Of a stretch of DNA of 64,000 nt, positions 41,433 to 52,239 are shown piece by piece. Each line of letters starts with the position of its first letter. Positions within the stretch are counted from its first letter, which is position 1. The translations under genes were made by a program, and so were the position numbers. Source of the stretch: Cyanophora paradoxa CCMP329 (Eukaryota > Plantae > Glaucophyta); assembly GCA_004431415.1 (NCBI GenBank), contig QPMI01000168.1:162477-226476 (forward strand), read 5' to 3'. The notes beneath the pieces were generated by a model. The model made no database searches, was not told where the DNA came from, and saw only the letters and a program-made list of their open reading frames with translations.

Positions 41433-41939
41433 AGCTCAGCTTGGCGCAGTGTCTCCAAACAATAACCTCGCGCGACCGCACGATCCACCGTAACAGCATC
41501 GAGTCTTTTCGAAAATCGCCGTAAGGCTCAGTGTCACGATCGATAATTTTAGTTTCACGATCGATAATTTTAGTTTCACGATCGATAATTTTAGTTTCAC
41601 GATCGATAATTCAATCGATAAAATACCACTTCATCGAATCACCGCACGATCCACCGTAACAGCATCGAATCTTTTCGAAAATCGCCGTAAGGCTCAGTGT
41701 CAAGATCGATAATTCAATCGATAAAACCTTTTTCTGGGCAGTGTCTCCGAGGACTCCGCACGATAGACAGTAAGGAGATCATTGTACAATCGATTCCGCA
41801 CGATAACCCTATAATTCCGCACAATTCCACAAGATTCCGCACGATAAACAGTAAGACTTTTTTCGCGACTCTTCTACAAAGATTCCGCACGATTCACTGT
41901 AACTTTTAACCAAAAGTTTAATAAAAATAATTCATGCTC
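41433..41939 (+). repeat. Left terminal inverted repeat (507 bp)
   Basis: Reverse complement of 51733-52239 with no mismatch seen by eye; contains a 21-bp tandem array, a ~74-bp direct repeat and CCGCACGAT motifs. Confidence 0.97.
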
Positions 41940-42990
41940 GACTTCGACTTCTTAGATTATACTTTCGTCTCACGATGTTACTACGATTGGGTTTAATGCC
42001 TTCTTTCTTTAACTTTTCATTAACTTTATTCGTTTTCTTGACTCTCTCTATTCGTTTCTGTGATGGAATTTTAATAATTTCGGATTCTTTCACTTTCTGT
42101 AATTCTTGCTTTTTGAAACGTCGCTTTACTTCCTTTACTTCTCCGTCCATGTCCTCCAATACTTTAAACCGGTTACCGTCAGGTCTTCCAACTTTAAAGA
42201 CCTTCTGACTGAATCGCGCACCTTCCTTTTCAAACGCACTTTTTTTACCTTCAAACACTCGAACAGTATCACCTGGTTTTACATCAACTTTCTCATTTCC
42301 CTTTACGTTGTTATTGTGGACAGTATCCCGAAGGTAAATGTATAGCTGTTTATCTTCATCAGAATACACAGCATTTGGTGAGTCATTTTTCAAAGCACTA
42401 TGAGGCGAATTATTAGAAACATCGAGAACTTCACTTAATAGATCGATCCATTTCGTTGTCCCCTTTGCTGTCATTGCCTTCCTCAAATATTGCTTGAAAG
42501 TCCTTGTGAATCTATCGATAATTCCGAGTTTATCACCAACTGTAATATGTTCATCCTTAGCAACATCGGTATATAGTCTGACTCCATGTTCTCCGCACCA
42601 ATTGCGATAAATTGCATTGGAAAACTCATTATCTCCCGATAGAGCGGCGACCTTTCCGGCGTCCTGTTTGAACCGATTAAGAATACTTGGGATATCTTGG
42701 TTTGTTTTGAAAGGATACACGTACGCCTTTCGACTTAATATATCAATAAAACTTATCATCTTAAAAAATCCATTGTTTGCTGTTTGATATCCTTTAAAAT
42801 ACATAATGTCCACTTGAAATGATCGTGGCTTCGCAACAATTCTTAGAAATGTTTTAGGCTTTTGTGGTTTCTTAAATATCTGGTGAACTTCTGAGTTTAA
42901 AAATCGTTTTTTCAATTCTTCTTCATCAAAATTAACTTTATCATTTATCAATTTCTGGCGATACTTCTTGTAAGATAACACGTTATCCAT
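41932..42990 (-). CDS. rve (retroviral-like) integrase of Polinton type
   Basis: FQVDIM...FIDILSRKAYVYP...SGDNEF...LGIIDRFTRTFK...WIDLL...NNSPHSALK.SP; C-terminal PGDTVRV...FEK; no chromodomain seen. Confidence 0.95.
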   Translation of the reverse strand: MDNVLSYKKYRQKLINDKVNFDEEELKKRFLNSEVHQIFKKPQKPKTFLRIVAKPRSFQVDIMYFKGYQTANNGFFKMISFIDILSRKAYVYPFKTNQDIPSILNRFKQDAGKVAALSGDNEFSNAIYRNWCGEHGVRLYTDVAKDEHITVGDKLGIIDRFTRTFKQYLRKAMTAKGTTKWIDLLSEVLDVSNNSPHSALKNDSPNAVYSDEDKQLYIYLRDTVHNNNVKGNEKVDVKPGDTVRVFEGKKSAFEKEGARFSQKVFKVGRPDGNRFKVLEDMDGEVKEVKRRFKKQELQKVKESEIIKIPSQKRIERVKKTNKVNEKLKKEGIKPNRSNIVRRKYNLRSRSRA

Positions 42991-45900
42991 TATTGAGCAG
43001 CGCAGTTACACTTAATATGGGACAGGAAACAATTTTTAGTAGTATGGGGTAACGCGTTATTGATCCGATCCACCGAAATTACACTTAAATCGAAATCCAT
43101 ACCACCGTAACAGCGCAGGCAGTGACCGTATTGTTTGCCGTAACGTTTCTTAATCCACTCCCAATTGACATAATCCTTTTCATCAAATGGTCGATTTGCC
43201 TTTCGGTCTTGCTCCTTGTACTGTTCGAGTCTCTCGTTAAACTTCTTCATGTTAACGACGAAATCCGCCCACTCGTAGCCATCATGGTAAATCTTCACGC
43301 GGCTTAGTTCGGTCGTTCGGGTGATTGCGGTATAGAACCATTCCGCCGAAACGTATGGGGCGCCCGATTCGTAGATGACGATGTTACCGTTTTCGCATTC
43401 GATGGTATCACCTTGAACCACGTGACAAGTGTAAGCGTATGGAAGCGCAAAGTATCGCATTGCCGGCGGGTCTAATGTGATTACCTCATTTGTCGCGACG
43501 TCTTCGATGACGAACTCTTTATCATCGAACGCCTTAATGGTGTAAGTGAACCCATTGTGAATGGTCACGCCACTCTTCACGATCCTTTGTTTTGCGACAA
43601 TTTCCACACCCTTCGCGTAGATCGGGACGTCTTCGCCATGGTTCATTTTGTGGAGTTGTAAGTTTACTTCCGCTGCCTTACGATTGGTGTAAACTATCGC
43701 CCTGTCATCCTTCCCCAAAGTATCAACTGTCTCAAACTTGTACTTTTTGATGACATCCGGGATGCTCATACCATCGAATAGATCTTGTTTAATTGCCTCG
43801 ACAGTGTCTTTATCCTTCTGGGACTTGTGACGCTTATTAACCTTCAATACTAATTCGTTCTGGAAGAGAAGACGAAGAATGTACGAATAGTATTGTTTCT
43901 GGTCTACGGTCATATTTTGGATAGGGGGATTTTGGTAAGGATCACCCGTGGCGATGTAAACCTTATCAGGGAATAGCACCAACATAATGTGAGCAAGCGC
44001 CGCCAACTCCGAAACTGTGAATTGACATATTTCGTCGATAAAGATAGCGTCATATTCAGCCAATCCCGCAGCATTTCCACCTACAACTTCGTCCATGTTT
44101 GAATCGTCAACTTTCAGATGTAGGGCATCATAAATGGTCTTAACATTGTGAAGACCATGTTGTAGTTTCATGTCCCGAATTCTCTTGTTAGTTGGAACAA
44201 TGAAAAGTGGATTTTGGTAGCGTTTCGCAAGCTGAGTGGCTATGAATGTCTTACCAACTCCTGGAACGATTCCGAGAATGATACATCTTTTAAGAGTTTC
44301 GAGAGTATCACAAATCGCTGGAGTGTTGTATTCATCAACCACTGAGTGAACAATGTAGTTTAACTTTTCCAACTTCAGGAAATCCTCATCTCTCTCAATC
44401 TTTCCATAATGCAACTTCTTTAGTTCAAACTCCTTGTTTTTCCCGATAAACTTCTTAATGAAATTGGGGCAGTGATTCACACTGAACTTGCCGATGTTGT
44501 CGTAGTTGTTGCGATCGAAAGTATAAGTTTCGATGGGATCACATGAGATTGTGTACACACAGTCAGTATTAACAGAGATCGGATAGGACCCTTTCTTACT
44601 TAGCTCCACGGTTTTCTCGTAAAGATTCATTCGCATGATGGAATACATGAGATTGTGGAATGGTAAGAAACCATTAGTAAGATACTTTTCGGCTTCTTGA
44701 TTCACATAATAGAAGTGTGGCTCTGTGATATTTTCCTCAGCAACGACGTAACAAGTTGGGTCATACGTTGTAGGATCTTTACCAAAAACGTATAGTTTCA
44801 CCTCTCCGCCATGTTGCTTTTGGAATTCTACAGCATCATCGCGCTTGTTAAAGATCGTGGTTTTTACTTTGTGGTTCTTCTGTTTTCCGATTTGCCCAAT
44901 GTTGGATACAAGCATTTGCTTTTTATCTGTTGGGTGAAGGTCAGACTCCATAATTTGCTTGATCACATCGCAGGAGTAATTTGGAACCAATTTATATGGT
45001 CTGAGAACCGCCTTAATGGTAATATCATCTTTCAGATCCTCGTAGTGTTTTTTGAGAACCAAACCGGGGATGACATTGTAGCGTGAATCAATCAGCATTC
45101 GCTTATAGCGATCATAAATGTTCAGTTCGTACGTAGTTCCATCCGAATTTTTCATGGTTTTGAAAAACTTGGACTTCAATTTTACGTAGTAGAAGTTGCA
45201 GTTTTCGATTTGCTCCACAGATGTTACCACTGTCTTTTGGAAATAATCGAACTTACTTATAACTGGGACGAATTCAATTTGTTTCGCGATGATCGCAGCG
45301 TATTCCTTACATCCATCATTTTCGTAAATATTCCTGTTCCACCAAATCTCTTCAATGGTCTCCTTATCCAAATCGAAAAATCCACGTAGGGCAGTCTGTG
45401 AACCAATGCGAAAAGCTGTAGCGGTTTGATCATTGTACGTACTCATATTATTAGTGTTCACAAGACTCAGATACATTAAAAGATTCAGACGCTCGAACTT
45501 ATCGCGATATTCAGCATCCTTAAAGTTAATCTGGTAGGCTGTCTCTACGTCTGTATCTGAACCTGGTGGCGTAATCGTGATGCTCTTTTCACCATACATG
45601 AAATGAATGTGTGTAACCTTGCGCATCGGCGATAGTCCGGCGTGAACTTGGTAATTAACATCGACGATGAATGTTTTAAGAAGATCATCGAGGTATCCAC
45701 TGTAACAAATCGAAATTTTGCTCTGGTTCTTCATCTCCTCCGAATTAATGATTTTCACAATATCCTCGGGAGTTGCCGCAAATTCGCGATGTTTTCTTTG
45801 CTTGATAATCTTGAATCGCGAACCCACCGAAAGGTTTGTGTCGGAATTCGACTTCGAACCATTGAATGAGTGAGTGAGAGATTTGAGATTTTCATTAAGA

Positions 45901-51721: not shown

Positions 51722-51732
51722 GTTTGTTTACA

Positions 51733-52239
51733 GAGCATGAATTATTTTTATTAAACTTTTGGTTAAAAGTTACAGTGAATCGTGCGGAATCTTTGTAGAA
51801 GAGTCGCGAAAAAAGTCTTACTGTTTATCGTGCGGAATCTTGTGGAATTGTGCGGAATTATAGGGTTATCGTGCGGAATCGATTGTACAATGATCTCCTT
51901 ACTGTCTATCGTGCGGAGTCCTCGGAGACACTGCCCAGAAAAAGGTTTTATCGATTGAATTATCGATCTTGACACTGAGCCTTACGGCGATTTTCGAAAA
52001 GATTCGATGCTGTTACGGTGGATCGTGCGGTGATTCGATGAAGTGGTATTTTATCGATTGAATTATCGATCGTGAAACTAAAATTATCGATCGTGAAACT
52101 AAAATTATCGATCGTGAAACTAAAATTATCGATCGTGACACTGAGCCTTACGGCGATTTTCGAAAAGACTCGATGCTGTTACGGTGGATCGTGCGGTCGC
52201 GCGAGGTTATTGTTTGGAGACACTGCGCCAAGCTGAGCT
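51733..52239 (-). repeat. Right terminal inverted repeat (507 bp)
   Basis: Reverse complement of 41433-41939. Confidence 0.97.

Follow-up and report, generated by a model that had tools for sequence, protein, structure and literature searches.

An intact 10.8-kb provirus of the Polinton-like type, with a predicted Tlr1-like replicase, in the glaucophyte Cyanophora paradoxa

Polinton-like viruses (PLVs) generally have genomes 14–40 kb in size (Bellas 2023, PMC10120064), and most PLV major capsid proteins (MCPs) outside the Gossevirus group are structurally closest to the capsids of nucleocytoplasmic large DNA viruses (NCLDVs) (PMC10120064). Integration leaves a target-site duplication (TSD) of 5–6 bp in PLVs (PMC12220804), as it does in mavirus and Polintons (PMC8547959), and the absence of a maturation protease (adenain) is the PLV norm (PMC5499653). 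Here, we describe an integrated element of 10,807 bp (positions 41433..52239) in a 64,000-nucleotide stretch of DNA, called the window, from Cyanophora paradoxa CCMP329 (GenBank assembly GCA_004431415.1, contig QPMI01000168.1, positions 162,477 to 226,476 of the forward strand).

The element is a real, intact provirus, and judged by its genes it is a PLV with a Tlr1-type gene set. We assign a probability of about 0.8 to the reading that it is an intact PLV genome in a host exon, recently inserted by its own rve-type integrase, and predicted to replicate and form small icosahedral virions on induction. The role of endogenous PLVs and the hosts of the small relatives of giant viruses are open questions on which the element bears, and an intact, young, single-locus copy in a laboratory alga that is probably axenic makes both testable. 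Its size approaches a lower bound for an integrating virus with a double jelly-roll (DJR) capsid and its own replicase, and it disrupts a transcribed host gene.

Ends, insertion site and interrupted host gene

The element is bounded by terminal inverted repeats (TIRs) of 507 bp each (41433..41939 on the plus strand and 51733..52239 on the minus strand), which are 100% complementary with 0 mismatches. Its termini read AGCTCAGCTT...AAGCTGAGCT, i.e. AG...CT. The TSD copies, GCATG on the plus strand, lie at 41428..41432 and 52240..52244; when flank lengths of 2–9 were compared, a direct repeat was found at 5 only, and such a duplication has a chance probability of about 1e-3 at any given position. 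The TSD length of 5 bp is read from one locus. Base composition also separates the element from its surroundings, with a GC content of 40.3% vs 69.0% and 71.3% in the 10-kb flanks and a CpG observed/expected ratio of 1.37. Seven open reading frames (ORFs), all intronless and without an internal stop, fill 92% of the interval between the TIRs; six of them have a codon-position bias of the coding type (p 5e-5 to 7e-51). A 62-amino-acid (aa) ORF at 47725–47913 was not counted as a gene, and no further ATG-initiated ORF of at least 60 aa fills the gaps between genes. No second copy of the element occurs in the window, and an Rfam scan gave 0 hits.

Each TIR contains a 21-bp tandem array of 3.9 units (41530–41611 in the left TIR), a 74-nt duplication (41475/41641 in the left TIR) and about six copies, counted by eye, of the motif CCGCACGA. 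An imperfect AGCT repeat opens the terminus and might be used for slide-back priming.

The stretch is present in 20 public sequencing runs from one organism, and five of 24 listed runs were examined. Three are DNA runs (X1, X6 and X14); two (X15 and X20) are taken to be RNA, a guess that GT..AG joints support, with none recorded as RNA. Contigs of X1 and X6 lead, with 0 differences, out of host DNA and into both TIRs, by 29 nt on the left and 30 nt on the right, and junction contigs of X1 and X14 match the same pattern, such that all three DNA runs examined agree. These contigs fall just under the 31 nt of the formal bridging rule; ends at 29–30 nt inside the TIRs are expected, because a repeat common to several copies begins there. 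An X15 RNA contig (record 9) does bridge the left junction, as a spliced sequence that has 0 differences and joins 67 bases of the host to 101 of the element.

When the element is taken out together with a single TSD copy, the host reading frame is continuous across the site, and the insertion therefore probably sits within an exon of a coiled-coil gene that is transcribed. The 5' part of this intron-containing gene was delimited at 40229..41432 (plus strand) from GT..AG joints in X15 and X20 RNA contigs and from the reading frame, and its spliced RNA continues into the left TIR. The gene has an in-frame stop farther upstream and may be a weak paralogue. Short GT..AG introns and a 21-nt coiled-coil repeat were observed across its two parts (40229–41432 and ~52245–52390), and differing contigs over it, found in X1 and X20, point to paralogues or alleles. 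No empty-site joint occurs among the 15 of 25 joints listed. The flanks carry ordinary spliced eukaryotic genes (77 of 135 long ORFs scanned).

Several features reported in a first-pass annotation of this DNA were thus seen again. The TIR comparison and the flank-length scan returned the same 507-bp TIRs, AG...CT ends and 5-bp TSD, and the GC values, the ORFs and the splicing of flank genes agree with its picture of an uninterrupted, intronless, AT-rich gene set in a GC-rich, intron-rich host. The recent integration it proposed is likely in view of the continuous host frame and of TIRs that show 0 mismatches over 507 bp.

Capsid module, replicase and integrase

The MCP (408 aa, 49643..50869, plus strand) was assigned by structure modelling and searches with Foldseek and VIA. 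The model, built on its five relatives, reached a pTM of 0.71 and matched the capsid protein of Paramecium bursaria chlorella virus 1 (PBCV-1) in Foldseek with E 3e-17. VIA Z scores were 28.2 for faustovirus (rmsd 3.2, 340 aligned residues) and 27.1 for PBCV-1, and 25–28 across NCLDV MCPs; elsewhere they were 18.4 for PRD1, 16.5 for Sputnik, 16.0 for mavirus and 10.7 for adenovirus. The modelled protein shows a DJR fold closest to NCLDV capsids. Sequence relatives are few: five among 1.84 billion representatives, at 24–29% identity, the sole named one being a C. paradoxa protein. Neither the MCP nor its five relatives has a Pfam hit, and a PDB sequence search with the MCP and its profile gave nothing relevant. 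A word-based homologue search yielded 0 of 2838 candidates, a profile search returned its own member P0005 alone, and no recognisable PLV MCP is among the fold matches listed. Capsid_N occurs in 10–18% of the members of its Atlas neighbours, which we treat as no more than a lead on whether the element falls with the Nucleocytoviricota-like PLVs or with Aquintoviricetes.

Next to the MCP gene lies that of an A32-like packaging ATPase (250 aa, 50969..51721, plus strand), matched by Pfam Pox_A32 with E 5e-15. A 300-aa ORF (48687..49589, minus strand) is likely a penton or minor capsid protein, judging from a weak match to PBCV-1 P1, which we take to be the penton of that virus. P1 is the sole match at E<=10 among 177,635 PDB entries (E 1.1), and the two align in two colinear stretches with ~145 residues inserted between. 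ESM Atlas neighbours of the ORF are viral clusters at 0.97–0.98; it has no Pfam hit, and its single-sequence model has a pLDDT of 29. A Lys-rich (14%) ORF of 249 aa (47876..48625, minus strand), belonging to no known family, possibly encodes a virion core or DNA-condensing protein. The basic 84-aa ORF (47279..47533, minus strand), with weak matches and a C-terminal RGRP that is presumably AT-hook-like, likely encodes a small protein that binds DNA. Of all the gene calls it is the weakest, because codon-position bias is absent (p 0.17). Weak matches of ORFs to Zot, RecA and peroxiredoxin were set aside as generic NTPase similarity or chance. Related loci were found neither in viral contigs (for the MCP, ATPase, replicase alignment, integrase or penton) nor in metagenome contigs (for the MCP or integrase).

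The largest gene encodes a Tlr1-like replicase of 1352 aa (42990..47048, minus strand). Its superfamily 1 (SF1) helicase was detected by hidden Markov model (HMM) search (Walker A at residues 930–934, DE at 1005–1006), and the other domains were read by eye against published descriptions (PMC5499653, PMC11161782). From the N-terminus, these are a possible terminal protein, a putative vOTU domain (C276, H380), a putative palm of a family B DNA polymerase that is primed by protein (pPolB; D578, K710, D829) and, at the C-terminus, an HNH-like finger (~1309–1348). Four homologues at 24–28% identity all share a like domain layout. Cys276/His380, Asp578, Lys710, Asp829, the helicase motifs and the HNH-like finger are kept across the alignment, with the vOTU Cys/His, both palm Asp and the helicase motifs conserved in 5/5 aligned replicases. 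HMM scans of the replicase gave no DNA_pol_B_2 hit. The features of the Tlr1-like pPolB-S1H class (vOTU Cys/His, motifs A–C, SF1 helicase, C-terminal endonuclease, length of 1000–1400 aa) are all present, and the replicase appears to belong to this layout. The arrangement matches that of the TP-vOTU-PALM-S1H(-HNH) class, for which polymerase activity is predicted (PMC11161782). The replicase stop codon overlaps the integrase ATG (TAATG, 42988–42990), which suggests coupled translation or one transcript.

The integrase (352 aa, 41932..42990, minus strand), whose stop codon lies inside the left TIR, is of the rve type according to a Pfam rve match below the cutoff (E 6e-4) and a match to the integrase of prototype foamy virus (PFV; E 1.3e-3). 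Its likely catalytic triad is D61, D120 and D159, with Asp159 aligned to the catalytic Glu of PFV integrase; the codon for this third residue is at 42514–42516. A deep DNA contig over 42113–42543 differs from the window at one base, which is outside codon 159. The D-D-D triad therefore seems to be a family trait.

The MCP and ATPase had been called in the first-pass annotation, and the DJR model and the Pox_A32 hit uphold both; the structure search it had proposed as a check ranked NCLDV DJR capsids best for the MCP. Its integrase and polymerase-helicase calls likewise hold, on the rve and PFV matches and on the SF1 HMM hit with the replicase alignment. It had also named a penton outright, which the E 1.1 match to PBCV-1 P1 and the viral Atlas clusters favour weakly, leaving this a likely rather than an established assignment.

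Related copies, predicted life cycle and rival explanations

Related copies of the element were evident from contig depth. Summed contig depth in X1 and X6, which is not equal to copy number, was ~95–125 on unique host contigs, 250–400 over most of the integrase and replicase genes and 700–2500 over the capsid module. This suggests a small number of close copies for the replication end and a much larger number for the capsid module, a contrast that reflects either module swapping (cf. 10.64898/2026.10.13.758929) or capsid genes that are simply more conserved. The family is under selection: between the element and its sister copies, 24 of 33 coding differences are synonymous, vs 21% expected (p 2e-10), and 0 create stops, the 33 coding rows being drawn from the 40 of 244 differences listed. 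A diverged TIR-like terminus at another locus, with 3 mismatches in 36 nt, was observed on a contig of 3365 nt in X1 and X14. X15 has contigs identical to the element over the integrase and over the replicase's 3' part; its deep contigs lie on portions of the MCP and ATPase genes, with gaps between, and these gaps suggest that they derive from sister copies near the 90% threshold. RNA contigs carry neither strand nor level, such that host read-through and viral transcription look alike, and the lack of any X20 contig over the capsid genes proves nothing.

The gene set allows a life cycle to be proposed. The integrase would join the AG...CT ends of a linear genome to host DNA with a 5-bp stagger, of which the TSD is the visible trace. 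The provirus would then be mostly quiet, probably through host CpG methylation; endogenous elements of giant viruses and methylation of viral genes have been reported in C. paradoxa (Sarre et al. 2025, PMC12344493). After induction, the terminal protein may be released from the replicase by the vOTU domain, and the genome would be copied from the TIR ends by the pPolB palm and SF1 helicase in a protein-primed manner with no proofreading exonuclease, as homology predicts. The ATPase would pack the DNA into a shell of MCP and penton without a maturation protease. Transcription would depend on the host or a giant virus, because the element encodes neither an RNA polymerase nor a transcription factor. 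By analogy with virophages, reactivation may be triggered by a giant virus; we place this just short of even odds and consider it slightly likelier than helper-free reactivation in the nucleus, itself a tentative but realistic prospect, because most cultured PLVs need a giant virus and giant viruses have invaded C. paradoxa. Both helper-dependent PLVs and one autonomous PLV are on record (10.64898/2026.06.19.733378). Capsid-family RNA contigs in one run would speak against a helper trigger if that culture was uninfected. That no virions are produced at all is unlikely.

Several points weigh against the interpretation as a recently integrated, inducible PLV. The DNA contigs reach both junctions without formally bridging them, the penton call leans on a match of E 1.1, and the integrase is matched weakly and has Asp rather than Glu as its third catalytic residue. 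Polymerase motif B has Val where the four homologues have Asn, and the vOTU, pPolB and HNH labels were given by eye without an HMM hit. The synonymous test draws on 33 coding rows from the 40 of 244 differences listed, and its expectation ignores transition bias. Virions, episomes and helper dependence are without evidence.

Some of these points feed rival explanations. Junction evidence from short-read and RNA contigs, with DNA contigs ending 29–30 nt inside the TIRs, is what might be expected had a free virus or contaminant been joined to host DNA during assembly; yet a TSD on both sides, a continuous host frame, identical junction contigs in 3/3 DNA runs and a spliced RNA contig across the left junction make such an artefact extremely improbable. 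The Asp in the integrase triad and the non-canonical motif B could instead mark a recently stranded copy that looks intact, its integrase or polymerase inactive while other members of the family are active. This we regard as very unlikely, considering that Asp159 is shared by the deep contig and seems to be the family state, and that differences in the integrase and polymerase genes are mostly synonymous. The strongest rival, although still improbable, is a self-synthesizing DNA transposon that spreads inside the genome only, carrying capsid genes along and making no virions. The element exists in several copies, its contigs in X1 and X6 being deeper than those of the flanks; the C. paradoxa genome has 366 MCP hits, and intragenomic transposition was left open by Bellas 2023 (PMC10120064). 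Capsid genes are expected to decay in a strict transposon (PMC10120064), whereas the MCP, penton and ATPase genes of the element are intact, and portions of the MCP and ATPase genes are covered by contigs of X15, RNA by guess. An inducible PLV genome thus remains the preferred interpretation.

Elsewhere in the window, host genes at 1631–28858 and 54077–54835 encode cytidylyltransferase, zf-HIT, WD40, zf-CCCH, PP2C, IFT81 and TPR proteins, the IFT81 gene being a sign of a flagellate host. Three tandem leucine-rich-repeat genes with 69-nt repeats (36000–39860, minus strand) lie just upstream of the insertion. A region of lower GC at ~52950–53760, with many CATGATCATG-like palindromes and a back-joint in DNA contigs, is possibly a small repeat element, and a dispersed 121-nt repeat occurs at 4972–5092 and 13120–13240 (87% identity).

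Comparison with described systems

The capsid family has already been catalogued. In Table S2 of Bellas 2023 (PMC10120064), 85 of the first 100 residues of the C. paradoxa MCP in row 24 equal those of the element MCP (compared by eye), and the MCP in row 106 is one of our hits, P0002. The HHpred best match of the row 24 MCP is an ascovirus MCP, which fits the NCLDV-type fold found here. The 366 MCP hits in that genome fall into two clusters, 20 and 28, each flagged 'new' and without a name (PMC10120064, Tables S2/S4), with counts of 272 and 94 read from column positions; the element MCP would belong to one or the other. The available parts of that study give MCP counts for these elements and no genome map or gene set, and Cyanophora PLVs are included without description in Bulzu et al. 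(2025, PMC12220804). The literature, in the portions available, yielded no description of the whole element, which Table S5 of Bellas 2023 or the bioRxiv supplements may hold; the name Cyanophora is absent from the accessible text of two further preprints (10.64898/2026.06.19.733378 and 10.64898/2026.10.13.758929). The possibly undescribed lineage raised by the first-pass annotation is thus overstated, its capsid lineage having been detected in C. paradoxa before (PMC10120064). What is still unusual is the 10.8-kb size, the D-D-D integrase, the possible placement among Nucleocytoviricota-like PLVs and the capsid-family RNA contigs in one run.

Features of PLVs in the broad sense that are present in the element are a DJR MCP, an A32-like ATPase, and TIRs with an RVE integrase and a TSD of 4–7 bp. 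A further such feature is a single jelly-roll minor capsid protein, for which the 300-aa ORF is the candidate; the size of 10,807 bp is below the 14–40 kb range, which is descriptive and not a strict criterion. Three features singled out as odd in the first-pass annotation are ordinary in this setting: a 5-bp TSD (PMC8547959, PMC12220804; within the normal range also per PMC7805220), a missing adenain (PMC5499653) and an NCLDV-like MCP, as in most non-Gossevirus PLVs (PMC10120064). Of its two proposed placements, PLV or NCLDV-like dwarf virus (NDDV), the former stands and the latter fails on size and gene set.

NDDVs (10.1101/2022.07.28.501842) are mriyaviruses, which share an NCLDV-like MCP and an A32 ATPase with the element and differ in having 35–45 kb genomes, VLTF2/3, RuvC, an HUH endonuclease and no integrase (10.1101/2024.02.29.582850). 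At 10.8 kb and with other identities for 5/7 ORFs, the element was rejected as a mriyavirus; the gene set is excluded because the two remaining ORFs, with no such Pfam hit, cannot supply four genes. The virophage class (Virophaviricetes) was likewise rejected on MCP Z scores of 16.5 (Sputnik) and 16.0 (mavirus) vs 25–28 for NCLDVs and on the lack of a protease. AG...CT ends are the Polinton consensus, and Polintons/Mavericks (Polintoviricetes) are further like the element in their RVE integrase, TIRs, 5–6 bp TSD, DJR MCP and ATPase. Unlike them, the element is smaller and has neither a stand-alone pPolB with exonuclease nor an adenain/vUlp1 protease (no protease family Pfam hit in eight ORFs, the 249-aa ORF being without family). 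With a polymerase fused to an SF1 helicase and no DNA_pol_B_2 hit, a Polinton in the strict sense was rejected.

Nucleocytoviricota-like PLVs (Zephyrvirus, Zoravirus/VC102, VC218, VC40) resemble the element in their NCLDV-like MCP fold and PBCV-1-P1-like penton (putative in the element), the Zephyrviruses also in PolB-SF1 fusions and VC102 and VC218 in RVE (10.64898/2026.06.19.733378). They differ in their 15–30 kb genomes, and even the 'highly reduced' VC40, at 15–20 kb, is larger than the element; Zephyrviruses have, in that source, no endogenous examples and no known host (10.64898/2026.06.19.733378). Zora-type groups possess Mriya48 and, often, HUH as well; neither was recognised in the element. 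Membership in this group, whose hosts are partly unknown, is possible. It is doubtful, although conceivable, that the element is a near-minimal, endogenous, inducible Nucleocytoviricota-like PLV whose seven genes combine a D-D-D integrase and a Tlr1-like replicase with a capsid and penton of giant-virus type. If so, that branch would gain a host among cultured glaucophytes, with capsid genes active under some conditions, and the element would be the first glaucophyte virus open to induction and anti-giant-virus tests.

The closest likeness in gene set is to Tlr1 of Tetrahymena and the pPolB-S1H PLVs. Tlr1 differs in its GIY-YIG C-terminus, where the element has HNH as in PLVs, and in the Tlr6F gene, which was not recognised in the element. 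Common to both are the MCP, minor capsid protein (putative in the element), A32 ATPase and, for Tlr1, RVE (PMC5499653, PMC11161782), together with the fusion of vOTU, palm and SF1 helicase, the TIRs and the absence of a vUlp1 protease. The likeness to Tlr1 is one of gene set and replicase layout.

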